From the NCBI RefSeq assembly GCF_037042905.1, contig NC_087251.1, forward strand, positions 31,746,001-31,810,000: a stretch of 64,000 bases of DNA, read 5' to 3'. Under the pieces are notes generated by a model. The model was not told the DNA's origin. It saw only the letters and a program-made list of their open reading frames with translations, and made no database searches. The DNA comes from Lytechinus pictus. Taxonomy: Eukaryota. Of the stretch, positions 945-59,298 are shown in pieces. Made by a program: the position numbers and the translations under genes. Every line of letters begins with the position of its first letter. Position 1 is the stretch's first letter.

Positions 945-3900
945 AGTGTGGGATTAGCCCCTTACAGTCCAATTGTACTGGCAAAAAAATTATTGCCGCC
1001 TCTTTTCATGCTTTGTTTTCATGTCCACAATATGGATTTTGCTTTTATCGATATACTTAATCTTGTTATTTGCCCACCTTTATGGAGTATCGTTATTTTT
1101 CATCATTTGCATTTTTTATTATATCGATTTTTCTTTGGGCATCTCTCTCTCCAGTAATTATCTTTGATGTATTTTTACTGTCTTTGCTCTCTGACGCGTT
1201 CGTCCGCTCTGCCTACGAAGATTTCTGCTAAATGCTGCCCTCTCTCGAACCTTTATGAATTCGTTATTTGTTTTTATGTGTTTTTGTTTCTCTGTATCAC
1301 TGTTACTTATTTGTTCCCACACAGGACCTTTTATTTTGATTACTCTTCTGTTACTAACTCAATGCCGAAAGTAGTAGTGAATGTTGAGACGCTAACCGTA
1401 CTTCCGTGAATACTTTAACTAATATGCCGTTTTATTCTTTGAGTAATGATGACCTCTCCATTAGTTTAAATACACATAATTCAAATGGCAACCCTCAGGT
1501 TAATTTGGCGTACAACCACTTTGTAGCCAACAACATTAACGCATCATCAGAACTTCTTGATTTTCACTCTGATCATGACTTAATTCGCAATCCATCATCA
1601 GAATACATCACTGAACTTCAATTCAAAAACACTAGTAAACAATTCTCCAAAGATATTTTTTCTTTATTACATTTAAACATAAGAAGCATAAATAAACATT
1701 TCGAAGAGTTCCAACTGCTATTAGACAATAATTCATCTAGACATTCGTTTTCCATTATTGGACTTACAGAAACTTGGTTAACTGACGAATCCAATATTCC
1801 ATTTGCATTAGATCAATATGATTTTGTTTTCAATAATAGGAAAGATAGGCATGGCGGTGGTGTTGCGTTATATGTTTCCCACAATTACGAATACAAAATT
1901 CACGACGAAATCACTAATATGAATGAATATATAGAGTCACTTTTTATCGAAATCAATGTCCCAAATTCCAAAAATATAATTGTAGGTGTTATATATAGAC
2001 CACCAAATTCTAACCATAATGATTTTTTACTTCACCTTTCTAACTTAGTTAGAAATCCATTGTTGGTGAACAAAGATGTTTTTATATTAGGGGATTTTAA
2101 TATCGATATATTGAAGCATGACAGCAACAATACTGCCCATGAATTTCTTGAAACATTTTTGACTTCTTCATATTTGCCATTAATATCAAAACCCACTCGC
2201 ATTGCAGATCGCTCTGCAACCCTTATTGATAACATATTTTGTAACATCATGCCGTCTCCTGATTCTGAAATTATATTATCCGATCTGACAGATCATTTTC
2301 CCATTATGTCACATTTTCCCCTCAAACACTCGTGTATTAATCCTTCCAAGCCATCAAGGCGGAGACCTACTCCCGAGAATCTTGCAAGACTGGGTGTTTC
2401 GTTAGAGTCTGTTGACTGGTCGCCTATTTATAACAATAATGATGCAAACATATGCTTCAATAACTTTCTGAATATTTTTAACAGTGAATTAGATAAGCAT
2501 ATTCCAAAAGTAAAAGATAGACAAACTAACTACAAAAAATCACCAAGACTTCCTTGGATATCTAAAGCACTTTTGCGTTCAATTAACAGAAAAAATAATT
2601 TATATTATAATTCAAAACTTAAAGGTACTCTTCAGGCAAAAACTAAATACACCACATATAAGAATACTCTAACTATGACAATACGTTTGGCAAAGAAAAG
2701 ATATTTCACTGATCAAATAATTCTGTATAAGCACGACATTCAAAATACATGGAAAGTTCTTAAACAAGCAATGAATTTATGCAATAATAAGTCCGATATA
2801 ACTGAAATTAGGTCTAACGGTGATATCATTGGAGATCCTGAAAATATAGCTAATGTTTTTAATGATTATTTTTCATCTATAGGAATTAACCTTGCTAGAG
2901 ACATCCCCCCTTCAACAAAACATTTTTATGATTATCTAGGTACACCTAATTCTAGTTCAATATTTTTCACTCCCGTAGTCAAACAAGATATTACTGATAT
3001 TGTATCTAATTTGAATAATAAAAAAAGTCCTGGTTATGATGATGTCAATAACTTCATTTTAAAAGGTATAATATCTGAAATTGTTGATCCTTTGACATAT
3101 ATTTTTAACCTTTCTCTAACCTCTGGTCAAGTCCCTGATCACATGAAAATTGCCAAGGTCATTCCATTGTACAAAAAAGGTGACAAGTTAAGTATCAGTA
3201 ACTATCGCCCAATTTCTTTATTATCGTCCTTGTCCAAAATTTTAGAAAAAGTGGTTTATAGCAAAACAATTGATTTTTTAAAATCTCACAATATTTTTTC
3301 TAACTTTCAGTTTGGATTTAGAGAAAAACATAACACAGAACATGCATTATTGAATTTCGTTGATAAAGTGGCCCACGCTTTTGATAATTGCTCACATCTA
3401 GTCGGTATTTTTCTGGACTTCTCCAAGGCCTTCGACACCATTAACCATGATATTTTATTACATAAACTTTCTCATTATGGGGTGCGCGGGAAGGCCTTGG
3501 AGTGGTTCAGAAGCTACTTGTCTGATAGACGCCAATTTGTATCTTTGAATGGTCAGGCATCCAACATGCAATCTATTAATTGTGGAGTCCCGCAAGGCAG
3601 TTTGTTAGGCCCGTTATTATTTATCATCTATATTAATGACTTTTGTAAATCATCTGATGTCCTTTCGTTTATACTCTTTGCAGACGATTCCAATATGTTT
3701 TATTCCCATAAAAATCCATATACCTTAGTAAATACTATTAATAATGAACTTTTAAAAGTCACAGAATGGATAAGATCCAACAAATTGTCTCTTAATCTAC
3801 TTAAAACTAAATATATGCTATTTAGCAATTCCATTGATACACTTCCGATGGACATTGTTTTAGATGACACTAATTTAGAAAGTGTCACATTCATAAAATT

Positions 3901-5104
3901 TCTCGGTGTTACCGTTGATAATAAGCTTTCCTGGAAATACCACATAGATTGTACTTGTAAGATTATTTCGCGAAATATTGGCATTATCAATAAATTAAAA
4001 TATCATTTTTCGTCGTCGTCACTTTTAATGCTATATTCTTCTTTGATCCTACCTTACTTGAATTATGGGATACTTGCCTGGGGCAGCACACACCAAACCA
4101 TTTTAGATAGACTGTTGTTACTGCAAAAGAAGTCCCTTCGTATTATTCATAATTCAGCTTTTCGTTCACACACTGACCCACTATTTTTTGACAGCAAATT
4201 GCTGAAGATAAGCGACCTATACTTATTTCATTTAGGGCAATTTATGTTTAAATTTAACAAAAATATCCTTCCACGTGTATTTGATTCTATGTTTCCTCTT
4301 AATCGGTCTTTTCATAATTACCCTACGAGGCAATCTAACGAATTTCATTTACCCCGTTTTAGAACTTTATTGGCAAAGAGTACATTTATGTTCGATGGCC
4401 CTAGTTTTTGGAACTCCCTCGACAATAACATAAAAAATAGCCCTTCCATACATTCTTTTAAAAGAAAACTGAAAAACTTCTTACTTAAATCCTACCGAGG
4501 TCTTCATTACTAATTCCCGCTCGTTACCACCCCCTCTCAGACATCTAGTTATTTTTATTAGTCTTTATCATCTTGTTTTATTCTCTAATTTCGGTCGCAA
4601 TTCGTCCTGTTTCTATTTAAGTTTACTTCTCCTTTTGTCGTCCTGTTCTTGTTCTTGTTTTTTTTTTTTTTTTTCTTCGTGGTATTTTACTCTTTATTAG
4701 TTTTGTCTTGTTCTGTGTGTTATCTTGTTCTTTTTAATCTATTCAGTAAGTCTCCGTAGGCAAATAGCAACCATTGCGTCTCTCCCCCCCCCCCCTCTTT
4801 CTTTCTCTCTCTCCTCTTTTCTCTTCTTTGAGGGAGGTTCACATTATACAAGCTTTGCTTTTGAGTGAATCTCCTATTTCCACAGATACCTTTTTTTTCT
4901 ATTTGAATTATATTTTATAATTTGTCTACGAAATGCACCACATTTTGTATATATCTTTATATGTTAATTATCATGAATGTTTTTTACTATGATTATAAAG
5001 ACAATGATTTGTATCGCAAATATTTGTTACAATGTATGAAAATGATTTGTATCAATATTTATGTTATTTCTGTTGGAAATAAATCTGAATCTGAATCTGA
5101 ATCT
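945..5104 (+). mobile_element. Non-LTR retrotransposon (LINE, L2/Crack/CR1 group) in the last GNPNAT1 intron, sense orientation; 5' boundary approximate
   Basis: Contains an intact APE-RT ORF, a ~570 bp 3' UTR with a stem-loop (4833-4874), AATAAA at 5078 and an (AATCTG)n tail at 5082-5104. No ORF1 or TSD is recognisable. Confidence 0.85.
1424..4513 (+). CDS. LINE ORF2: apurinic-like endonuclease plus reverse transcriptase (~1030 aa; ORF open from 1406, first ATG at 1424)
   Basis: Endonuclease motifs HLNIRS, GLTETWL, GGGVALYV, YRPP, GDFNID, TLIDNIF and TDHFP. RT motifs YRPISLL, QFGFR, FLDFSKAFDTI, GVPQGSLLGPLLF, LFADD and KFLGV. No stops or frameshifts. Confidence 0.95.
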   Translation: MPFYSLSNDDLSISLNTHNSNGNPQVNLAYNHFVANNINASSELLDFHSDHDLIRNPSSEYITELQFKNTSKQFSKDIFSLLHLNIRSINKHFEEFQLLLDNNSSRHSFSIIGLTETWLTDESNIPFALDQYDFVFNNRKDRHGGGVALYVSHNYEYKIHDEITNMNEYIESLFIEINVPNSKNIIVGVIYRPPNSNHNDFLLHLSNLVRNPLLVNKDVFILGDFNIDILKHDSNNTAHEFLETFLTSSYLPLISKPTRIADRSATLIDNIFCNIMPSPDSEIILSDLTDHFPIMSHFPLKHSCINPSKPSRRRPTPENLARLGVSLESVDWSPIYNNNDANICFNNFLNIFNSELDKHIPKVKDRQTNYKKSPRLPWISKALLRSINRKNNLYYNSKLKGTLQAKTKYTTYKNTLTMTIRLAKKRYFTDQIILYKHDIQNTWKVLKQAMNLCNNKSDITEIRSNGDIIGDPENIANVFNDYFSSIGINLARDIPPSTKHFYDYLGTPNSSSIFFTPVVKQDITDIVSNLNNKKSPGYDDVNNFILKGIISEIVDPLTYIFNLSLTSGQVPDHMKIAKVIPLYKKGDKLSISNYRPISLLSSLSKILEKVVYSKTIDFLKSHNIFSNFQFGFREKHNTEHALLNFVDKVAHAFDNCSHLVGIFLDFSKAFDTINHDILLHKLSHYGVRGKALEWFRSYLSDRRQFVSLNGQASNMQSINCGVPQGSLLGPLLFIIYINDFCKSSDVLSFILFADDSNMFYSHKNPYTLVNTINNELLKVTEWIRSNKLSLNLLKTKYMLFSNSIDTLPMDIVLDDTNLESVTFIKFLGVTVDNKLSWKYHIDCTCKIISRNIGIINKLKYHFSSSSLLMLYSSLILPYLNYGILAWGSTHQTILDRLLLLQKKSLRIIHNSAFRSHTDPLFFDSKLLKISDLYLFHLGQFMFKFNKNILPRVFDSMFPLNRSFHNYPTRQSNEFHLPRFRTLLAKSTFMFDGPSFWNSLDNNIKNSPSIHSFKRKLKNFLLKSYRGLHY

Positions 5105-5798: not shown

Positions 5799-5976
5799 GA
5801 TAGTAGAAACCCTTACATTACTAAGTCAACAGGTTGGCTGCTACAAAACGGCTCTCGAGTGCAAGACAGAAAATATGGGATTCTACACCAAGTTTGGCTT
5901 CAAGAAGGATGTTCAAAATTACATGACCTATCGACATGAACATTGTTCATTGCATAAAGAGGAGACCAACAGTTAA
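5799..5976 (+). CDS. GNPNAT1: Glucosamine-6-phosphate N-acetyltransferase, last coding exon
   Basis: Acceptor ttatag|G at 5798/5799. Translates IVETLTLLSQQVGCYKTALECKTENMGFYTKFGF..., similar to the GNA1 C-terminus (CYK.tLeC...N..FY.KFG). Stop at 5974-5976. Confidence 0.85.
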
Positions 5977-8587
5977 TGATCATTTCTGACCAATATATCA
6001 TTTTAATCATGAGTACAGATAATTGCAGGTCAGATGTCTTCATTAATCTTCAGCTTTAGTGGAAAAGCAAAAGAATCAGGATTAGTGCAGTTGTAGTTAA
6101 CTTTTGCTACATTTTGTGTGCCTAAGAGATGTAATAATGTTGTATTCAATTTGCATTTCACGTTAATGAGTAACATCAAGGGAAAGCTAGAATTCATTGT
6201 CAGACTCAGATGAGATGGATTCTTGACTGCGTTCAGGCAAAATATGTGTCCCTGCTTTTGCCAGACCAAAATTTGTCATACAACTTATACAATTTTCTCA
6301 TGACCTCCGAGATCTTCAACCTTGTGACTCCCAATTCTAATGATGAAAATGGTAAGGATTATCCTCACATGGATATCCATATATTAGCCAAATTTGAAAT
6401 TGATCCCTCAGTTGGTTCTTCAGTTTTCACAAGAGAGATATGTATTCTAAGTTTTATAATGATCCTTGCGACCTTTGATCCTGTGCTTCTTGGTTATTGT
6501 TTGATGGTTAAAACCCTTCCTTTATATGTCCATTTTTCGTTTTTGTTGCAAACGTTTGCTCTTTTTCTTTCTCTTAGATGACGACCAGCCCAGGCAGGGT
6601 GTATGACACCCTTCCATGGAACATTGTAAAGTGTTTGAAGGGGTCTTGTGAAGAAAATATTCTTATTCTGTTTCACAGAGAATGAGGGAACGAATTTGAT
6701 TGGATTGTGAAAATTAAATTTTCACATATCAGTGAAATCGTATTTTAAGTCCACTTTTATACGTTTTTATGTTTAAGGCCATATGAATCTCACATTATTG
6801 AATCTTTACAGAACTTTAGACAGGGTCTATTAGGTGTGCCAAACAGTTAAACCTATTAAGCAAAGAAACTTTGGTGATTAAACTGCTCCCTTATGAGGAT
6901 CTTATATGTATTGGCATTCTAATATTTATTTTCACTACTGTTTGTCACTATGTTGGCTGAACCTCATGCGTGGTTGTTTAATTTATTTGGTACTGCTGTA
7001 TATTTAAAGTTTCATTCCATCTTCTGCTATATGTGTTATATGTTTTGCTTGGACACTAGTGTATGAGTTTCTGATGCTCATATTCATATTTTATAAATGT
7101 ACATTTTCTGTAGATAATGATAAAAAGTATATGACTATTTTATTTATCTAATTTAATTCATTTACTGTATAGTAGATGAACGGTTAGAATGGAAGACCAT
7201 TATAGCATGTGGAATACCAAGTAAAGTTTATGAACATCACTCATTATTTTATCAATTCGCTTTTAATAATTGAGAATGATATAATTGTGTCTTTTCATTA
7301 ACAAGGGAATGTAATGTTTGTGTGGGTGTTTCACTTCTAAAATGCATGGCTTTAAGAAATTGATTATTTGTGCAATTTAGATGGTGATTGTACATAAATT
7401 TCCAACTTTACATTACTCTATCATTAATGATTTGACATTGAATTATCACTATTGTGATATCATGAATGTCTTTATTAAATCATCAACCTCAATGTTACTT
7501 TTACTACTACTTCTGATACTACTATTAAAATACTGTTGTTGATTTGGTTTTATCACCTTATGTGCCAATTTGGTAATGAAAATGCTTTACTATATGGAAT
7601 GTCAAAGAATGAAATGTTAATGTGATTAGTATGCAACCATGAGGGGTAAACACAATACTTTTTAGGTGATTTCAGGAGGGACAATGACCTTTTTTTTCCT
7701 TCAAATTTAAGGGTCTTATTCTTAATGAATTTACAGTAGTTCATGTTTCATCCTGCCTCAAATTAGTATTTTCCAGTTTGCTTAACTGTAATTGTATTTG
7801 AATAGTGGTTAAAAACAACATACATGTAGATGTATATAGCTATACATGTAGAGAACAAAATTCATTGATTTTAATTTGGATGCCATTTTTTTTCATAGAT
7901 TTTGATAGTATATTTGAAAAGTAATATATTTCACCATTTTCTTTGTTTCATTTTTTGGGGATGGTGGAACACCAGTGTGTTAACTAGCAAACTGAAACAC
8001 CTCCAGAGTGCAGTATATGAACCAACTGATCATGTCGCAGAATTCTTGTTAAATACTGATAAATGTACAAAAATAAATAAAACAATAAAAATTGGTAAAA
8101 AGCTTATTATACTATAAATATTTTTGTCCCACAAGACTCGAGTCTAAACTTGACCAAATTAACAATCATAATGTGAAGGGACATTCTGTGATGAGTTTGA
8201 TGACAGTGCCTTAAATGTACAAAAAAGATATGTGTTCATTTACTTTTTGGAGGTTGAATCTACCTCTAACAAGTTGATTTGAATAAATAGAGCAAAAAAA
8301 AAAATCAAACAAGTATGAAAGTTCTTCCAACTCAGATGTAGAATTAGAACATAAACATTTTACCTCAATTTCACAAAATACTTGCATGTACAACTCTGAT
8401 GATAATTGAGAGTGCCAATATCATTTACTATATTTTGTATTTCAAGATATTCCAGGGGAAAGCATTGTCACTATCCATATCCTGCTACCAATTCATTTCC
8501 AACAACCTCACAAATGTGCCCTAGATGCAGAGTTCCTATTCAAATTTGGAACCCTAAATAACATCAATACATTAGAATAGTCACTAT

Positions 8588-13444: not shown

Positions 13445-15327
13445 TCAGTGTGATTTGTACATTTCATACGTATATTCCTCCGTGTAAGTTGCGTCATATG
13501 AGACGGATATGGAGTCTATTTCAAGCGTAAACTCTCCATCCACGGCATCTCCCATAGTCAGACCAATAGCATTGACGGATTCCAAGTCCGGTGGAGTCTG
13601 CTTGTCCTGGACTCTACCTTTGCTTGACATGAAGAACTTGGTGAAAGGGATCTGCATAGGTTTGGAAAAGAAAAGGGAATCAAGAATAGGCATATGGAAA
13701 ACAGACAGAAAATCAAGGTAAATCCAATGAAACGAGTATCAGTAGAAAATCAAATTTGTTCATGGTGCTAAGTGTTGACCATTCTCATTACGTTTAACTG
13801 TAAGTATATTGAATACTTATGCTTTTCTTAGATTTTTTGCTATCTACACTGGCGGATCCAGGGGGGGGGGCACCCCCCCCCCCTTTTAAAAAGCAAAATT
13901 AAAAATTTGTAATGTAAAAATGCCATTAAAACAAAGGTGTGCCCGCTCTTGAAATTGAAGACCTTTTTTTTTTTGCTTGTCAATTTTTTGGCGGGTACGA
14001 AATATCCTTAATTTGTGGTTGAAAACATTTTTTTTTTTTGCTTGTCAAAATTTTCCTCTGAAAATTTTGCCCCCCCTTTTGGAAAATCATGGTCCGCCCC
14101 TGGCTATTTACAATTGTTTTGTACATGTCAACAGAGAACAATCTAGTGTTTAGAACACAGGACAACACTGAATTTGCATTTTAGAAAACAGAACACAAGA
14201 GATTCTAAATGAACCACAAGATGCAAATTGATATGATTTCTCTAGACACTGTGTTCAATCCTACAGCTTAAGAATATTTAATACTGATCCTTACCGTAAT
14301 ATCTTGCCAATATGGTCCACCTCGTGTGAATATGAAGTAACTCCAAACATCATCATGAGACTCTGTAAAGAAGCCCTTGATCATCAGGTTTACCATGTAA
14401 GCACGACCATCTCCTCGTACCCTCATCTTCAAGACATTGAATGGTGTTAGGTCCATTGCTTGTTTCCTATTGAAGGATTTCTGTCATGCATAAAAACCCA
14501 TAAAGGATAAAAGAATGCAAGCTCGTAATTTTGCTTAAAATACTTAATTAAAAAAATTGGTTAAAAAATGGTAAAATAAAATAATAAGAAAGCATATCTA
14601 GTCTGAAACACATTAAAGGTTTCCTAAATTAGACAAATAATTTGATCTATTGCAATTGAAAATTGTCTACCGATAACAAATAATTTTATATTCTTGTCAT
14701 ATTATACATACTTTTTACTGAATACTTTAAAGCTGTTTCAACTCCATGGAGTATAAAAAAAATCATATTCCTGCTGATATCAAGTTAACGTCTTCTTGTA
14801 AAGTGGTATATTCTACAGATTTGTTAAACATAAGAGTTTTGTTTACTCACATAAGCTTGTTTAGATCTCAAAGCACAGTATCCACTTCTTTTAGTTTCTC
14901 TATCCCTTGGAACCTCAGTGCAGAGGTTACCATGAAACAGCAGCTTATTGTTGCGACTGACAGTCAATCCTGCAGTACTTCTCCCTCCAATCTCAGCATC
15001 AGTATGGACAATAAAGTCTTCAATACTCTCAGGTCCATTAAAATGCCACAACACTCGGTTCTGGTCAAACATAGTGTCAAGGTTTGGACTTCTAATCTTA
15101 GTCCACATTTCCTCACCTAAGAGTTTCACATTCCTATTTAAGAAGGAGAAATAACCTTCTCTGCTCTTGCTTCTTTGATCTGAGCTACTCAGTCTACTAT
15201 TTGAAAGGAAAGGAATAGCTATCGATTGTCTCTGAAGATATGAGCTTTGCTTGAACTGCCAAAGTGTCCTCCACGTGTTCTCCCTCAAACGACAAACAAG
15301 ATGCTTTGGAATCATTGCCATAGTCAC
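13445..15327 (-). CDS. NDUFAF1: Complex I intermediate-associated protein 30 (CIA30), 3 coding exons: 15327-14851, 14480-14295, 13651-13445 (~289 aa)
   Basis: Spliced product has an N-terminal Arg/Ser-rich presequence-like segment, then LWHFNG, TDAEIGGRS, FHGNLCTEVP, KRSGYCALRS, MRVRGDGRAYMVNL, FTRGGPYWQ, IPFTKFFMSSKGRVQDKQ and GEFTLEIDSI. All junctions are GT-AG, phase 0. Confidence 0.93.
13847..14102. mobile_element. hAT-like MITE in an NDUFAF1 intron
   Basis: Ends CACTGGCGGATCCAGG / CATGGTCCGCCCCTG. Flanked by a near-perfect 8-bp TSD GCTATCTA / GCTATTTA. Confidence 0.7.
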
Positions 15328-17261
15328 TTAGTCACAACTTTCTACATTAAGATTGCACTAATATCACATCATCACTGCATTTATCTTCCAGAATCAGCTG
15401 ATCTCCTGTATCTGTTTGTCCTGTATGTCAGGAGAATGTTCTTTTATCTGCAAAATAAGTAGCAGGCTTAACATATAAATATGAGACAAAAAATAGACTT
15501 GTAGTAAACACTGAACAATCGTATGAATAAAATGACTTTCTGCTGATCAGAATTTCCACAAGTCAAACTAATCAAATGTTTAGCAGATCCCAATTAAATA
15601 GTGTAACTCAGATATCTATTAAATGAAATAGTAACAAAATAACAAGATATTGCAGATTACAAAAACTTTAAAGATTTGACTCAGTTTTGAAAATGAAGTT
15701 GTCAAAAAAATTACTGAAAATGAATTATGACTGTTAGTGCATGCGAAAATTGTTTCACATTGGCATTTAACAAGCACTGGACATTTAACAATGACTTCTG
15801 CCCTGGCTCTTGGCACACATGTATTTTGTATGCATGACTCAAACAAGACTGACACACAAAGATACTTTTAGAGGCCATCTGTCAAATTTTAACAAATGGG
15901 AATAATGAAGAGAGAAAATAAGGAAATTATTTGATTTTTTCTAAACTCGAAAAAATTGTTTGGAATAAAGCGATGTTTTACTTGGCCAGTATAAGCAACA
16001 AAAGAAGGAGGGTTTATAAAGTAGTGAAGAATTAGGTCTTGCATTATTTGTAACTTCCCATTAACAATACTTTAAATATTATGCTCGGAATACACAATTT
16101 TCAACATGGTTGTCATAAAAGCTCATGAAATGTTTGCTACATTAAAGAGGAAAGGGGAGCTTTTTCATTAATTTAGTTGCAAATTGTCACTCAGGAATAA
16201 TCATCAATCATTAATCTTTACTTTTTACTATTCAAACTATTCAAATTCATTGCTAGATGATCATATGAATGTGTGTGCCCTAAACAATAGATGAGAAGTA
16301 TTACACATTAAAATGTGTTTTCAATGTGCCTTCATCCATACCAGCCAATAGCTGCATCTGCAAAAAAAGTGCCAAGACAAAGTTGTAAACAACACGTCTT
16401 TCAGGGGCTCAAATACTTTTCATGGCTGCAGTTTCAGAAGCAAATTTTAATCTTTCTTGAAAAATTACAGTAGAGGCTACATGTATGTCTAATTCATATT
16501 TTGAGGTTTCAAGATCCAACAGATACAAGACCCACTTCATTCTAACACCAGCCACAACACCATACTTGAAATGAGGCTGGTGTTGGGAGTGACCTCGGAA
16601 AATATGACAAATTCCCGGCAGTTTGTGTTTAGCGCTGGTGTTGAATGTCGCCTGCTGAATAATAAGAGGCATTACAGCTGGTGTTGACTATCTTAATTTC
16701 ATGTTTGGTGTTGGTATTCGTGATTTGAAGCTCGCGAACGATGAAACATCCCAGTAATTTTTATGAACAATAATAATTTGTCTTTCAGATATTTGAAGTT
16801 ATGTTGGCCTTACTTTGCATTCTGTATGAGATTTTTATAACGCGATCGATATATCGTTCTTCTGAATCCAGCTCGGTTCAGCATTCTTTTCATGCCCTCA
16901 TCAGTCTAAACATCAACACCAGCTGACGAATGCCAAAAAAAAAAATGGCTTCAACTCAAGTCAACCCTGATGTCAACAGCAGATAGAAAACTTTGCACAT
17001 CCAAGGCAATTTAAAATTGCCTGGCCACCGGCACCGGGCACAGGCACAGTATTAAAACAAAAAAGTTCCCTATAAAGGCTATAGATACTATAATTTATAA
17101 ATACATACATGATCGCTCACAAACACAATCACTCACAAAATAAAAATGATCGGCCTTATCCTGAAATAAGTCACCTCTCTTCTCCTGTGTGCGCTTGTTG
17201 TCATGGTTGTGTACAAAGTCAATGGGAGAGGAAAGAAGTCACCTCCACTGACGAAATGAAC

Positions 17262-18732
17262 CAGGGTGACCAGACATACCGTATTTTGCTTCTTTGTCCC
17301 GGCGTCCCGACAAACCCTTCCCGGGACGCCTATTTGTCCCGTATGTCAGAATATTGAACAAAATGTAATTAATACATAGAAAAGTGAAGAATTTTCATAA
17401 AAATAACCTGGGAAAATAACCAACAGATGACAAAGGAGAGACAACAATAAAATTACTGTAAACTTTTGCAAGTTCTGCGGCTTGCAATGGCTTCCTGTCT
17501 GTGTGTGTGGCAGGCTACTAGGATCGGAGCAGATTCTCAATGGTGCAAACAATCTCACATGATCAACAGTTTTTCCACCAAAATAATCACAAAATGGGCG
17601 GGCAATTTTAATTTTTATATTATGGATTCTCAGATTACTGATTTGGTGATGTAATCGGTGGAGCAAGATATTGAGTTTTCATAACTAGATCTAGTTGTTT
17701 CAGGTTTCGTTTTAAGTCTTGTTGTGATCAGTGCTAACTTGTCATGGGATGAGAGATGTGTGATGCTGCGATGTTTCATCTAATTTTTAAGTTTGACAAT
17801 GTTTCACTTTGAAATTTTATTCATTTCTAAAACATTTTAGTGTTCTAACAATTTTTAAAATAGATTTTTAAAAACCCAAATATCATGAAGATGATTGGAT
17901 ATTTTTGCTTGCTTGAAGTTTGAACTTTTTTCCTTTGTTTCATTTTTATTTTTTATCCTTCTTTCTTCATCCTTCTATCCTTCCTGCTTGCCTTTTTTTG
18001 TTCCATCTATCTTTATTTCCAATCTTTCCTCGCTTTCTTTTCTGATCCTTTCTCTCTCTCTCTGTTCATTTTTCTTTCTTTCTCTTACTTTCCTTCTTTT
18101 AAATACCTTTTTTTATTTCCTTCATTCTTTAATTCTTTCCTTGAACTTTTCTTTGCTTCCTTCTCCCTTCCTCTCCTTTTCATTTTCGTTCTTTCTCTCC
18201 TTCCATTAGTTTTCTTTTTTTTCATACTCTCCTCTCTCCCTTTCATCGGCTTTCTTTCATTCTTTATTTTCTCTTTTCCCCTTATTCATTCTTTCCTTTC
18301 CTGTTTTTTCCATCTTTCTTTCTTTCAAAGAATGAAGGAAACCTTTTTCTTTCTTCTTTTTTTTTCTTACTTTCTTTTTTTTTCCTTTCTCTCATTTATT
18401 TATTATATCACACATGCATTCATTCATCTTCCCTTCCTTTCTTTATTCATTTCAAAGAATGGCAGAAAGTAAACCTTTTTTTCTTTTATTCATCCGACCT
18501 TTCATTCTAATTTTAAAAAAAAAATTTCCTTCATTTTCATTTCCCCCTTCATTTTGTATTTCTTTCCTCTATTCCATCTCTTTTCTTTCCTATTTTCTTT
18601 CTCTCCTTCATTCTTTCGTTCACCCTCCCTTTCCTTTTCTTATCAAACATTGTGTTTGTTGATTTTTTTTTATCAGTTGCTCCGATCGTGCATCGTGCTT
18701 TTTGTCCCATATTTCATTTTCTGGTCACCCTG
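17262..18732. mobile_element. hAT-superfamily non-autonomous element (~1.47 kb) with internal CT-rich tract
   Basis: 13-bp TIR CAGGGTGACCAGA / TCTGGTCACCCTG, subterminal TGTCCC motifs, and perfect 8-bp TSD AAATGAAC at 17254-17261 and 18733-18740. Confidence 0.88.
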
Positions 18733-19060: not shown

Positions 19061-19260
19061 ACTTACCACTTACCCAGGTCGGACGTCGGCCGGCCGCTCG
19101 GAGAGCATCTTTGCCTTTGGTACACGTACCGGTATACATCACGTACGTACATCACGTGCATTATATATATGGGAACCCATTATATTAGTATGTGAGTATA
19201 TGCCATAGAATACATCTCTATGGTATATGCATGCACCGCGACATTTCGGCCAAGCTGAGT
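19061..19260 (-). promoter_or_regulatory. Candidate non-coding first exon/promoter of NDUFAF1
   Basis: CpG-enriched patch ending, on the minus strand, in two tandem GTAAGT donors (19073-19068 and 19066-19061). A matching acceptor lies at ~15447, upstream of the NDUFAF1 ATG. Confidence 0.4.
19196..19230. mobile_element. Putative P-element-type transposon excision footprint
   Basis: GTATATGC-[CATAGAATACATCTCTATG]-GTATATGC: a 19-bp imperfect palindrome between perfect 8-bp direct repeats. Confidence 0.7.
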
Positions 19261-22257
19261 ACGGCCACAGGCAAGGTTCGAGACCAAAAGTTTTAGGGGA
19301 GCTTAGCGGTGCAACAGCCGGGGTTGGGGCAGGAGTGGCAGTCTGCCCACCCTGGCGGAGCTCACCAGGAAAAAAAACCGGGGAAAGCTAAGACAGAATT
19401 AAAGAAAATGAAAAGGAAGAAAAAGAGGAAAGAGGGGGGGGGGGGGGAGAAAGGGGAAAGAATTGAGGGGAAAAAGAAAGCCGATAAATTAAGAGAAGAA
19501 AGGTAAAACGGAAGGAAAAGGAAAAAAACACGAATAGGGGGCCTACGCGTATAGATCTAGGTATAAGAAAAAATAATCCCGAAATACTAATAAATAGGAG
19601 AGAAAGGAGAACCAAGAGATGGCCACGTGGAACGGGAATTTATGGCGGGAAAACTGAGGAGTGAGAAAAGTGACGGAAAATGAAATAGAACAATGAGGTA
19701 AGTATAGACCCCGGTACGTGGTATAGGTCTTAATATGCTCAAGCTGAATTTTTAAAAATGAAGAAAAAAATGAAGACACAGTCTGGGCTACCAAAGATTA
19801 ATAATAAATTAAAGCATGAGATGGCTTATTAATGTATGATAACTTGCTAAATGGCAATAACGATCGCAATCAGGACAATATTACAGAAGATTATTAGAGA
19901 GGTTCCATGCAGAGGTACCGTCCAAGCATTGCCTTATAAATTATGTCAATTTAATGAGGCCTACATAATTTCATTTTCATAGGGCAAAAACTCGCTCTTG
20001 ATGTTATAGAAAATTTGTTTCGTAAAACCTCCGTAAAACCTGTATACCCGCGTGATTTGATTGAAAATAGCGGCCATCAAGGTAAATGACTGAATCTATA
20101 TGGAGAGGAAGGGAGTCCCAAAAATTTCTACGACCAAGAACAAACAAGCAAAAAAAGAAAAGGAGAAAAGAAAGAAAAGCACTTAAAGGACAAGTCCACC
20201 CCACAAAAAATTTGTTTGAATAAAAAGAGAAAAATCCAACAAGCATAACACCGAAAATTTCATCAAAATCGGATATAAAATAAGAAAGTTATGACTTTTA
20301 AAAATTTTGCTTAATTTCACAAAACAGTTATAATAATATGCACGTCCTGAAAAATCCTGTTCACATTATGACCGGGATATTTTTGGCTCTTGCCCCTCCC
20401 CGGCAACCGACCCCTGTTACGCCCCGAGCTTAACTGTGCATGCCTATGAGACTTCTGCAGGGAGCTTGAGAATTTTTGACGTTGTTCATTTCAGTACATG
20501 GAAAATAGTCTATCGTAAGCAGCATGCATGGGTGAAACAGCTAAGGGTCGATCGGCGGCCGGCCGGGCCGCGGGCCGGCCGGCGCGGGGGGGGGGGGGGA
20601 GAGCCAAAAATTTCCTCCCGGTCATATCATGATGTGAACAGGATTTTTCATGATTACACGCGAGCACTATGGTGCGAGGCTCTATGTGAGAGTAGCGTTA
20701 TGAGTAAAAAGATAAAATAAGTAAAAAAATCGCAAAATCAAGCTCGAAGCACAAGCTAAATTTTTTTGGTCCCACTCACTTAAAAAAAGGACCTATCCCT
20801 GTTTGCGTGACACTTTGTGATATTTTCACCAAATAAAATATGCGAGATGAAAAATGTTAATATCCTGATATGATAAGTGGACGTTAGCATTTCTTATGAA
20901 CAGGATGGGTATCCATATATCTAAACAAAAATGCATGCGAGCGCGTTTTAATACTTTTTTGCAATTATGAAATTTATTATGCAAGATGTGTATCTCGCTA
21001 AAACAAATAATGAAAACTCGAATCATGAAAAAAAAAATTATTGTGCATATTGACTCGAACACTGGATTTTTAAGCCCCATGTTATCTTATTAAACAGATC
21101 ATTTATTTATCTAAATCAAAAGTCACTGCGAGCGCGAACAAAATTTTGAATGTTATAAAATGACCTCAATTAAAGTTTTATTTCATATTGCAGGGAACTA
21201 TACCATGACTATATGAGGAAATTTTACAAAATTTGAAGGGTGAATAGTGCTAGCTGTTGTGGATCACTTTACAGCTTAAGTGAGATGCTCATGACAGCAT
21301 TTACATTATTTCTTCAGTTTCGGAATATTCGGGGGGCCGGGCGCGGGAGCAAGTAGGGCAACGATCCTGACCCCCCCCCCTTGGTACCACCACTTACAGC
21401 ATGGTGCATGTGGCAAAAGTTTCTGAATAAAAGTCCCGGGAGAGCGAAGCGAGCGAGGTTTTCTTCTACTTTTTCATTACAAGTGATAGATTTTGACATG
21501 ATCTTATTCCTCTTTCCTGTCCATTTCTTTAATTTCTCCTTTTGTTCTTGGTCGTAGAACTTTTTGGGGCCAGTCCCCAGCAACGCCTTCCATTTTTATG
21601 CCAGTGCTGCTGGGGTCCGAGCGGAACCAGAACCTCTCGAGATTTCATTACATGAAACCTTACTTTTCAATCTGATCATATATGTTTTACAAAACGCATC
21701 ACTTCAATACAGTGGAGTAATAAACCAAACATTTGAGGGGCACAACATGTGAAATGTGGGGATATTTCTAAAACGTCACGAACGAGTTCATTACACTACC
21801 TCATTTCCCGTTTCTGTTTGTCCCTTTTCTTTCCTCTTGAGTCCTGTCATACTCGTTCCCGTTCCATTTTGCCACCTTTCTATATATTTCCCCTTTCTCA
21901 TTCATTAGTAAGTTCTTTCTCATAATCTTGTCTCTGTTTTCCTCTTTCCGCTGAAAACCTTTCCTCTCTTTATAGACTCTTTTCCCTTTCCGTTTCTTTT
22001 TCCCCTCCCTTTCCCCTTTTCCTCCATTTCCTTTCTTTCTTTCGTTTCTTTCAAAGTTTTCCCATTCTCCCCGGTTTTTTTCCCGGAGCCATGCAGGGCT
22101 GAGGGGGGCAGATCGAGGCCGCCCCCGTGCCCCTCGCCGCCTGTTACCACTAAAGAAGACAAGGAATAATATGCCTTGTTAGTTGCTATTATGTCAAAAC
22201 ACTTGTTCTCAAAAGATGTATAGCTAGGCCTACATGCATTACCTCCATGAGTATATA

Positions 22258-23129
22258 GGGGAAGGCGGGGTAAGTTGAGCATAAATTATAGGGGCAAGTT
22301 GAACCACTACCCCCAGGCCAATAATGAATGAGTCAGACACTGTGGTGTTGTCATTGTATTGATGACCCATTGCATAACCCCTAACCCCACCACAAGTTGT
22401 TTTCAACTTTGAAACAAAAAGTACTTTTTTTGAGGGAAAAATACAAATTTCAGCCAAAAAAGTAAAAAAGGGTGCGAAATAGATAAGTGCTTTTTACACA
22501 CATGCACACACGTCTTTAAATAAAATAAAGACCAAAGACTATAAAGAACAACATTGTTAGCCCAGGTATGGAGCTTCATTCTTGTCATAGTCTTTTATAA
22601 TTATGATGGATGCATAAGAAATGTGTGGAAGCGAAATTATCGCATCATGTTCGGACTGGGGTAAGTTGTGCCAGCCGACATGGGGCAAGTTGAGACATGG
22701 TAATTCTTATAATGTAGGCCTATATAAAAAACAAAAAAACCTTAAAAAGCCTTCGATATGCAGACAGAAAGGAGCAAATTTACATGACTGTTCTATTCCT
22801 TTTAGGATGTTGTTATTTATAGAGAATTAGCAAGTGAAAAGACTTTGAATAAAAAAATTAGACATGCTGGTTCTTCCCCCACACATATAGTGTTTGTGGC
22901 TCAACTTACCCCACAGATGGGGCAAGTTGAGCCATCACATCAGACAATGACTTTCAGTGTGGGGATAGAAAGTTATATATAGGTGAAAGATATTTCAGAA
23001 GAATTGAATTTTAAGGCAAGGTACTTATTTCTACAAGATTATAAATAGTATCAATTCCAACATGCAAAAAGCAAAAGGTGGCTTACCCATAGAGAGTATA
23101 CATCTCTATGGGCTTACCCCGCCATCCCC
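22258..23129. mobile_element. MITE with TA TSD and subterminal GGGG(C/T)AAGTTG repeats (Tc1/pogo-like)
   Basis: TA|GGGGAAGGCGGGGTAAG ... CTTACCCCGCCATCCCC|TA. Internal GGGGCAAGTTGA-like motifs at ~22290, 22657, 22682 and 22919. Confidence 0.75.
23080..23118. mobile_element. Putative P-element-type transposon excision footprint nested in the right end of the 22258-23129 MITE
   Basis: GGCTTACC-[CATAGAGAGTATACATCTCTATG]-GGCTTACC: a 23-bp imperfect palindrome between perfect 8-bp direct repeats. Confidence 0.75.
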
Positions 23130-23817
23130 TATATACGGATCTTGTTCATAAAAGAAAGGATCGCGTTGCCCCGCGTTGACAATGCAAGCTTTTACCGTGT
23201 CGCAAAAGGTGGGACGAATGCCTGATACGATATTTCTGATGGACGACGAGTTACACTCATTGTAGAAATGGAAATGGCAGGAGCAAAGTCAAATCGTCGT
23301 ACTCTCTCCAAAGTCTCAACTTATTTTTCATATTTTCTTTGTCAGTTTTCTTAATATTGGCATACTGACGCGATCATGGCGGCTTAAAGAATCACAGTCG
23401 GCGGAAAGTCCTTCGAGAGGATTGTTTATTCCAACTCTAAATAGAATTCGCCGAACTGTTTAATAAATAAGCCTAGGCTTCACGTCTTACGACATCACTC
23501 GCAAGTCGCAGTCGATCGGAGTGTGCAATAGCCAATAAACTGGGAGGAGCTGCCTATCCGTCCGTCCAGCCAGGTTGTGTGCATTGAAGTTTGAACTCAG
23601 CCACATCTTTTTGGGGTGCTAATTCGCTTTGCTGTCCTTGGCCCTTGGCTGTGTAGTGTAGACCCTTCAGAAAAGACGCAGGATCTAATTGGGTGTACCA
23701 TACAGTACAGGCTTAAAATCTACTCCATCAAGGATCAAGGCACTAGGCCTAGTCAGCAATAATAATTTGTCATTGAGTCATTTGTAAATTAAAACAATCC
23801 CAGATCACATCCACACA

Positions 23818-26669
23818 ATGTCAAAAGCTACCAAACGCAAACATGTAACAAGAGAGGTTCTGGAAGATTATATTTTGCCAGAGGAAAATCAACAAATTTT
23901 GAAGGTTAGTAGTAAAAGTAGAGTCTTAAACTTTCACTTGGCCTAGACTTGGTCATGTTGGTCTTGGAAGTTTCGCTTGGCCATGAAACTTTTAATGAAA
24001 TGGCTCAGTCAGTGAGCACATCTCATGCTTGAGTAAACACCAAACTTCAAAGTCAAACCTTGTTTTCTCCTTATTCTTTGGAGCACTCAGTGTTACATTC
24101 AATCAAATATTTATTTTGGTTATTGATCAATTTTCATCTTAGTTAAAAGTTAAAGGTAAAAGACAGTAGGGCCTACCAATTGGCAATAGTTGCAGCAAAC
24201 AATTATTTCATGAGAAAGTCTTTTAATCAAGGTTAATTGTCAAGATATTATCAATTAAATCTAGATCTGGGATCTGTTTCATAAAACTTGTTACAATAAC
24301 AAATTTACAAGAACAGTTAAAAGCTACTGAAATCCTTTAATCTGATTGGCTGATGGTAAATTTGTTATAGAAACTCTGCATTTGTTGCAACAAATCGTAA
24401 TGAAACAGGACCCAGGTAGATCTACTTTATGTAAACTTATCTTTGTAAAAATCATGAAATCAATGGCTCAAAATCGATAATTCTGATGATTACTAACACA
24501 GAAAAGCTATGTGGGAGAGTGTATTAATATTGCTTCGAAAAATACCCAGCATTTGATGGAATTCCATGCTTATTTTGCTCATTTCTCAGCAATTAACACA
24601 TTATCTTCCAGAGGCACATATTTTTTTATTTATACATATACAAACACTTGGGTGGTAATTTCTATTGATTTTGTTCGAACTTGTTTTGAAAAAGCTACCA
24701 CAACTGGTATTTATCTTTAAAGCTTAGAATGTGCTTTTTCAAGCTCAATAATAATCTAAAAATTCATCAGGGGTGATTTTTTGTTGGTGTTGGGGTGGCA
24801 GGCAGGTCACAGTTGATCTCAAGTTGGAAAAAGTGATGCATTTTGGAAGTGGTTGAATTTCTAAAACGTGACCAATAAATAGATGCTGTATTCAACTTTT
24901 AAATTGATAATTTCCTACTGTTGAAATAATTACAAACTTGTTTAAAAAAACACTCAATTTAATTTAATCATTTGTGATTTGCTTTTGCAGATACTTGGAG
25001 GAAGAGGAAACAATCTTCATGAAGCTCAGACATCTGAAGGAGATAAATTCCTGATCAGTATGCCAACCAGGTTTAGGAAAAATGTCTGGATAAAAAGGGG
25101 TAAAAGAAATATTCTATCAGTCATTTTCTGGATTAAGTGTTGAAAATTATTGGCATCAATGTCTCCTTATCAGACAAAATAGCTTTTTGCAAAACTCTTT
25201 TCATACAATATCTGTCATTTTCCCAAAAATGTTAACCTGTAGAAACAATATAAAGTATATTACAAAATACAAAGTATATTGCAATTGATAATGCACTTGC
25301 CCTGCATGCATGGACATTATCACTTGAAATAACTAAACTGCATGTGCACGGACCAAACATGTTCACAAGGAGTGAGTTCATAAAATGATGATAAATGTGC
25401 TTTTTTTTTTAAATTTGATTACATGTAGGTGACTTTGTGCTTGCTGACCCTATTCTAGAAGGTGATAAAGTGAAGGCTGAGATTGTTGCAATTCTCTACC
25501 CTAAGCAGATCAAATATATCAAACAAGAACAACTATGGTAGGTATATGCAGGTCCATGGTATATGTAATTTACACATTATGCACTTATACCAAGTCTCCC
25601 CAAAGTGAACATTTTTTTAAAGGTTCCTTGGGGTGCAGGGTGAATTTGCCCCTGTAATGCCTAAAAGATCCCCGGAAACTAATACAATATCACAAAGCAA
25701 CAATGTCCCGATAGTATTAGTTGAATAATTTATATGTTTTATGGCTTGGATTGGCTTTTCAGGGATAAAATAACGGGGGTGCAGTAGTCTGCTGGGCAAA
25801 CCCTTCACTCGAGTTAAGGGTCTGAATGTGCAGCCTACTCATGCCTTGTGTACTGAAGGCTCTCTCGCAAGTTTTGTATGTGCTAGTCTTTGCGTGGAGG
25901 CACACTTGTTGATCAAAGTTCCAATCAGGGTCTGTGCCTGCAGACTAGGGGTGCAGAGTGAATTCGCTCCTGAATGCCCCAAAGAGCCCAGATAACTGTA
26001 ATACAACATCACAAAGCAACATAGTCCTGGGGCCCGTCTTACAAAGAGTTGCGATTGATCCGATTAATCGTAACTATGGAAAGCCAGCAAAGTCAACATA
26101 TAAAATGCATGTTTGTCCAAAAGATTTTCTAGATATGAATGTATATCCATGAATTTATTGATTTCTTGACCATTTGGTGTGTTCTCCTTTGTTTACAAAG
26201 GAAATTTTGCAAATTTCTTGTAGAAAAAATTATGGCACTGATGGATTTCCATAGAGTTACGATTGCTTGGATCAATCGTAACTCTTTGTAAGACGGGGCC
26301 CTAATAGTATTAGTTGCATAATTGATACCTTTGGATTCTCATTGTGTTACTAGGCCTCAAGGTTTTGTCACAGGAGCCAGTGAGATTAGGAATCAAAACC
26401 CAGAAGGCACTGAAGTAGAGGCCTTGACCAACCAGCTCAATGATGCATCCATAGCTGACAGAGATGTAGAGGAGAATAACGGGATCTCTGATGGAGAAGA
26501 GGATTATAGTAGTGAAGACAATGATGATGACTTGTTTGTCAATACAAACAGACCCACAGTTACATATTATTATTCAGATAGTTCAGAAGAAGACGAGGAA
26601 GAGGAGGAAGACGATTGTGAGGGGGAGGTTCAAGAGGTAACAGATGAAGATCATAGTGCGGACCGATAG
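23818..26669 (+). CDS. EIF1AD: Probable RNA-binding protein EIF1AD, 4 coding exons: 23818-23904, 24991-25099, 25429-25537, 26354-26669 (~206 aa)
   Basis: MSKATKRKHVTREVLEDYILPEENQQILK/ILGGRGNNLHEAQ...LISMPTRFRKNVWIKRG/DFVLADPILEGDKVKAEIV...QLW/P, then an acidic tail with DDLFVNTNR. GT-AG junctions are in phase. Confidence 0.95.
24150..24720. mobile_element. TTAA-flanked non-autonomous element (Kolobok-like) with nested Harbinger-like MITE (24269-24413); second copy at ~63306-63714
   Basis: TTAAAGGTAAA...AGTTGCAG ... CAACTGGTATTTATCTTTAA. Colinear with 63306-63714, which lacks the GGGATCTGTTTCATAA...TGAAACAGGACCC insert. Confidence 0.7.
26029..26301. mobile_element. Palindromic MITE (Harbinger-like) in EIF1AD intron 3
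   Basis: GGGGCCCGTCTTACAAAGAGTTGCGATTGATCC ... GGATCAATCGTAACTCTTTGTAAGACGGGGCCC. Confidence 0.8.

Positions 26670-39389: not shown

Positions 39390-59298
<19,909 letters not shown>

Follow-up and report, generated by a model that had tools for sequence, protein, structure and literature searches.

Two short palindromes in the 5' region of the divergent genes NDUFAF1 and EIF1AD are very probably insertion-and-excision scars of a cut-and-paste element. We propose, with a probability of roughly 0.55, that a P-type element inserted there and was excised, its two visits being drawn to this region by a preference for transcription start sites (TSSs). Positions below are those of the window, meaning the whole 64-kb stretch of DNA that was analysed. 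The scars and their duplicated target sites are:

19196-19203, no strand assigned: left target-site duplication of scar 1, 8 bp, GTATATGC
19204-19222, no strand assigned: scar 1, CATAGAATACATCTCTATG, 19 nt, made of 6 letters of the left end and 13 of the right end
19223-19230, no strand assigned: right target-site duplication of scar 1, 8 bp, exact
23080-23087, no strand assigned: left target-site duplication of scar 2, 8 bp, GGCTTACC
23088-23110, no strand assigned: scar 2, CATAGAGAGTATACATCTCTATG, 23 nt, made of 8 letters of the left end and 15 of the right end
23111-23118, no strand assigned: right target-site duplication of scar 2, 8 bp, overlapping the terminal arm of its host MITE

A search for the scar pattern found two matches in the 64-kb window, where the mean expected by chance was 0.01 and none of 100 shuffles reached two, in agreement with the preliminary description, which had reported these as the only two scars in 64 kb. 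Exact 8-bp direct repeats, GTATATGC and GGCTTACC, flank scars 1 and 2, respectively; no such case arose in 100 dinucleotide shuffles, which rules out chance palindromes. A blind search for inserts that have inverted ends and lie between direct repeats likewise recovered both scars with their 8-bp duplications. A relaxed scan of the window (CAT..ATG, one mismatch allowed in the repeat) returned five matches against a shuffle mean of 2.05 and no further clear scar, the other three matches being indistinguishable from chance. A 12-bp CAT...ATG insert at 7198-7209 lies between 8-bp repeats with one mismatch; it may be an older scar, from another family, and does not rise above chance.

Both scars have the form CAT...ATG with 6-8 bp of perfect inverted ends. 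They have 13 right-end letters in common although they lie at unrelated sites, and each retained piece is shorter than 17 nt. The right end of scar 2 served as the yardstick for their anatomy, its 15 letters being the reference by construction; on this measure scars 1 (6+13) and 2 (8+15) are fully accounted for by end letters, with none left over. Alternatively, they could be 5- and 1-letter deletions, respectively, of a perfect 24-letter palindrome in which two overhangs had annealed at a self-complementary hexamer. That such micro-palindromes record insertion and excision had been proposed before, and we adopt this reading because of the exact 8-bp duplications, the occurrence of one end sequence at two unrelated sites and the unequal junctions. 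Local template switching was rejected, since the inserts contain no copied flank sequence yet are alike at two unrelated sites. A structured RNA was rejected as well, its predicted folding reflecting the inverted ends alone.

We identified the two places as insertion sites because of their duplications, the motif alone being insufficient for this in other collections. An exact 8-bp duplication accompanied none of the 119 listed matches to the same or a looser motif in the viral collection, none of the 22 motif matches in the metagenome collection and none of the 14 in prokaryote genomes, and the strict scar pattern had no match in viral contigs. We regard as chance one metagenome match that has a single mismatch and is situated in coding DNA of bacterial appearance.

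By analogy with known systems, the element that left the scars was probably of the P type. P-element ends read CAT, and both scars carry the ends CA(T)...(A)TG of the superfamily, together with its 8-bp target-site duplication. The retained 6+13 and 8+15 letters are compatible with the P-type limit of at most 17 nt per end, in two cases of which the 15 is the reference by construction. Donor-site remnants of the Drosophila P element are alike in having 8-bp duplications, retained outer repeat letters and pieces shorter than 17 nt; the scars differ from them in the sequence of the ends beyond the first letters, and in being fixed in the urchin assembly rather than laboratory-induced (excerpts of PMC7776569). 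Zebrafish Pdre / THAP9 elements are P-like elements of a deuterostome, with short terminal repeats (13 bp) and 8-bp duplications; the portion of PMC10983969 on which we rely describes neither a promoter preference nor a class of genomic scars.

No P transposase (THAP, GTP-binding insertion, RNase H) was found among the window open reading frames scanned (24, then 147 of 169 filtered), and no parent element with the scar ends was found in the 64-kb window. A partner end accompanied none of 34 viral matches to the end motif, and no empty allele at the scar sites was present among the indels listed. The target motif of P in Drosophila melanogaster is the 14-bp ATRGTCCGGACWAT (excerpts of PMC2577343). 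Its G...C at the duplication ends fits both sites, and its outer A and T, the two most informative positions, are absent at both (flanks TGA/ATG and GGT/CCG), a mismatch that excludes only the Drosophila-specific target motif.

We describe the mechanism on the model of the Drosophila P element, which makes 8-bp duplications, is cut 17 nt inside its terminal repeat, is repaired by HR or NHEJ and favours promoters (excerpts of PMC7776569). What inserted at each site, producing the 8-bp duplication that we observe, was a DNA transposon that most likely belonged to the P superfamily. A staggered cut within the terminal inverted repeats would then have excised it, with single-stranded repeat pieces staying on the chromosome, and end-joining would have trimmed and joined these pieces to give the 6+13 and 8+15 letters now seen between intact duplications. 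Both visits fell in the unmethylated-looking 5' region of NDUFAF1 and EIF1AD. The balance tilts modestly towards an element that, like Drosophila P, prefers transcription starts, and selection favouring excised alleles at promoters may contribute.

Whether the scars lie near transcription starts depends on the gene models, of which the parts needed here are:

14851-15447, minus strand: NDUFAF1 first coding exon, acceptor 15447, ATG 15321, in-frame stop just upstream; X1 and X2 contigs end at 15448
19067-19160, minus strand: candidate NDUFAF1 non-coding first exon and promoter, with donor-like sites (last exon base 19074 or 19067) and CACGTG at 19153-19158
23278-23904, plus strand: EIF1AD first exon, comprising the unspliced 5' UTR and first codons (ATG 23818-23820), bounded on the left by a contig end

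NDUFAF1 (CIA30; minus strand, Pfam PF08547) and EIF1AD (plus strand, Pfam PF01176; PDB 6zxf_j EIF1AD, E 6.6e-13) form a divergent pair, whose promoter region is the only one identified in the window. The window also contains the 3' part of a protein kinase C gene on the minus strand, and two small exons on the plus strand (478-541 and 5800-5940) that resemble, presumably, the end of glucosamine-6-phosphate N-acetyltransferase; the last exon of this pair had no Pfam or PDB match.

Reads of 4 of 24 runs were mapped at 85% likeness; of these, X1 and X2 are not recorded as RNA runs, yet their contigs stop at exon borders. EIF1AD contigs extend unbroken to the donor at 23904, from 23278 in X2 and from 23390 in X1, and the stranded run X22 has 9 sense reads at 23315, 28 at 23393 and 30 at 23637. 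About two antisense reads lie over 23315 in the same run. The 5' UTR (23278-23817) is unspliced and roughly 430-540 nt long, and the EIF1AD 5' end falls at approximately 23.28-23.39 kb, a position blurred by contigs that give no true start and by a MITE that masks the upstream bin. By this RNA evidence, about 170-280 bp separate scar 2 from the EIF1AD 5' end downstream of it.

For NDUFAF1, the in-frame stop just upstream of ATG 15321 means that an earlier non-coding exon must exist. From its sequence, the best place for it, by a small advantage, appears to be the candidate at about 19.07 kb, which has two good donor-like sites, a CACGTG box and a CpG peak and which lies 130 bp from scar 1. The joint between exons 1 and 2 is absent from the joints listed, and a neighbouring repeat hides exon signal in the 19.07-kb bin. 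In the unique bin 19605-19901, X1 coverage is low (mean 2.7); these reads could come from DNA or from the intron of a transcript that starts more distally, and they speak mildly against the candidate. The contigs ending at 15448 suggest that the upstream exon ends in G, not AG; such an ending fits donors at 19074, 19067, 19130, 17280, 19366, 22910 and 23118, and not those at 17175 and 17243. In the bin 23169-23465, the EIF1AD contig explains all of the depth (19.5 expected and 19.5 observed in X1; 65.3 and 65.2 in X2), which makes 23169-23277 an unlikely place for NDUFAF1 exon 1. On the minus strand, the target duplicated at scar 2 (23080-23087 and 23111-23118) is splice-donor-like, and a very short NDUFAF1 exon may use the donor-like site 23118 within it.

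These models refine the interval 19061..23820 that had been drawn between the two genes. Both genes are confirmed; position 23820 belongs to the EIF1AD start codon, with the transcript start some 430-540 bp further upstream, and the NDUFAF1 exon at the other limit is a candidate. Of the promoter proximity claimed for both scars, the part concerning scar 2 holds by RNA, and that concerning scar 1 stands or falls with the candidate exon. At this locus, then, one of two scars lies near an RNA-supported 5' end and the other near a candidate exon.

The surroundings of the scars are rich in CpG, as had been noted by eye: scar 1 falls in the top 2.1-3.8% of window positions for CpG richness and scar 2 in the top 4.0-9.4% (+-200 to +-500 bp), both thus within the top 2-9%. 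The strongest CpG peak of the window, at 56.6-57.4 kb, has no scar; since it has the look of a palindromic repeat, we do not treat it as a promoter that lacks one. The GC-rich palindromic repeat spans 56710-57380, within a protein kinase C intron. The whole of the 16.6-23.5 kb region is CpG-rich and crowded with other elements, among them the host of scar 2:

22251-23136, no strand assigned: high-copy MITE, 886 bp, TA-type ends, 24-nt arms at 22251-22274 and 23113-23136 that are 96% complementary

Bins within this MITE reach depths of about 260,000-407,000 in run X8 (DNA of a related organism), against about 100 in unique bins, and from this depth we judge its copies to number in the thousands. 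Scar 2 interrupts its right end and is therefore younger, a later insertion into an element already beside the promoter. At 20345-20653, a MITE-like element with 27-nt inverted arms explains the mid-intergenic CpG peak. An EIF1AD intron holds two small elements, at 25785-25947 and 26036-26294, one with 8-bp inverted ends and a 9-bp direct repeat, the other with long inverted arms between GGGGCCC sites. Further away there is one more element:

1388-4510, plus strand: LINE, with an uninterrupted 1041-codon frame and endonuclease and reverse transcriptase domains

This LINE is young and apparently intronic.

We assessed the placement of the scars with p values that assume two independent random positions in the window and that are after-the-fact, with n=2 and a window chosen for the pattern. 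They were 0.018 for both scars falling between the NDUFAF1 and EIF1AD ATGs, 0.0055 for both within 19061..23820, 0.019 for one or both scars lying within 300 bp of one TSS, and 0.12 for two scars no more than 3.9 kb apart. As a control we used the TA-type scar TACATGTA, of which the window holds 12 copies, none between 16.5 and 25.4 kb; one of the 12 lies in the ATG-to-ATG interval (Fisher p 0.033 versus the two scars). A look-elsewhere estimate, partly hand arithmetic, assumed 3000 scars, a genome of about 800 Mb and 247 windows. Under these assumed numbers and random placement, about 44 scar pairs less than 3.9 kb apart are expected genome-wide, about 6 of the 247 windows would have two scars, and about 0.1 would have both in such a promoter interval. 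Overall, non-random placement of the scars is favoured.

The strongest competitor to our proposal, though we think it distinctly less probable, keeps the P-like scars and drops the targeting. The two sites would reflect one local hop, or an element that generally prefers unmethylated intergenic DNA or survives there, and the closeness of the EIF1AD start would be coincidental. P elements do hop locally, over 50-150 kb (excerpts of PMC7776569), the entire 16.6-23.5 kb region is CpG-rich with many other elements in it, about 44 pairs this close are expected at random under the assumed numbers, and scar 2 lies in a MITE rather than in conserved promoter sequence. Against this competitor stand the position of scar 2, less than 300 bp from an RNA-supported 5' end (p 0.019), and the expectation, again under assumed numbers, of only about 0.1 windows with both scars in such an interval.

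Targeting by a P-type element has a clear precedent. In Drosophila, P insertions are strongly enriched at TSSs, 5' UTRs and the 200 bp upstream, in highly expressed genes, and the authors argue that targeting tracks Pol II initiation rather than general open chromatin; its cause, replication origins or Pol II initiation, is still debated (excerpts of PMC7337890). Scar 2 lies at the edge of the zone most enriched in the TSS precision targeting described for Drosophila P and maize Mutator, a comparison of thousands of insertions there with n=2 here, and with scars, not elements, in a deuterostome (Zhang et al. 2020, PMC7337890, in excerpt). The preliminary description had called the region a hotspot. 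That goes beyond the evidence: the within-window p values of 0.006-0.02 come from two events, possibly one local hop, in a window chosen for the pattern, and it is reasonable to treat the hotspot as a hypothesis, not a result.

Less likely still, and in our view improbable, is that the scars were left by another superfamily that duplicates 8 bp, such as hAT or one like it, when gap repair was aborted or the element was deleted internally, or that they are inserted minimal MITEs. Duplications of 8 bp are not exclusive to P, the reading frames scanned contain no transposase that would tie the scars to P, and an intact element with an 8-bp duplication and different ends lies nearby:

17262-18732, no strand assigned: second cut-and-paste element, 1471 bp, 13-bp terminal repeats, exact 8-bp duplication AAATGAAC

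This element is situated in the NDUFAF1 5' region and has a pyrimidine-rich filling; its features suggest that it is hAT-like or P-like and non-autonomous, and its ends differ from those of the scars. In hAT excision the hairpins form on the flanking DNA, and element letters do not normally remain between two intact duplications. Contrary to this rule, both scars hold element-end letters in exactly that position, and neither is a flank-letter footprint free of element ends. Elements of 19-23 bp would moreover be too small for transposase sites. Copies of one mini-element would be alike; the two junctions are not, as is usual for repair products. Tc1/mariner elements resemble the scar-leaving element in producing uniform short excision scars (TACATGTA), but their footprints have a TA target and add 6 bp, with 2-4 retained letters, while the scars have 8-bp duplications and 19-23 retained letters; the two kinds also differ in placement, 1 of 12 footprint copies in the window falling in the ATG-to-ATG interval. 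A P-type origin remains the one we prefer.

The preliminary description had further suggested that the scars might be co-opted as binding sites for THAP proteins, here taken as regulating NDUFAF1 or EIF1AD, and this we consider very improbable, even though the scars adjoin promoters and the SELEX motif of zebrafish THAP9 is absent from its own element, so that end-binding rules may vary (excerpts of PMC10983969). The Drosophila THAP domain binds not the outer repeat but internal 10-bp sites that begin past the 31-bp terminal repeat, at distances of 9 and 21 bp from it (excerpts of PMC7776569); with the cut lying 17 nt inside the repeat, such sites would leave with the element, and by analogy they would be outside the part left behind here. 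The scars are also trimmed, differ in length and spacing, and look young, having perfect duplications and, in one case, a position inside a MITE. A loose THAP-type pattern occurs 290 times in the window, so matches in the scars are uninformative. Most likely, both scars are inert.

Footprints and promoter preference are already known for Drosophila P. We found no report of such scars in sea urchins in a literature search that covered few subscription papers. Taken alone, this locus amounts to two small, probably inert scars, and the pair cannot prove a hotspot. Old promoter insertions are usually purged, which makes the preference difficult to observe in other animals; excision scars, being tiny, should be near-neutral and persist, and repeat annotation would miss them. 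The wider suggestion, which we advance tentatively and at somewhat less than even odds, is that P-like excision scars, peaking at transcription starts, form a large fixed record in the sea-urchin genome. If the scars are common, a genome-wide test in a deuterostome would be possible from an assembly and TSS or ATAC data. If the suggestion is true, the P superfamily would have TSS precision targeting as a trait far outside flies, and a 20-bp scar, taken together with its 8-bp duplication, would mark germline-active promoters from sequence alone, including those of unannotated non-coding first exons such as the NDUFAF1 candidate.
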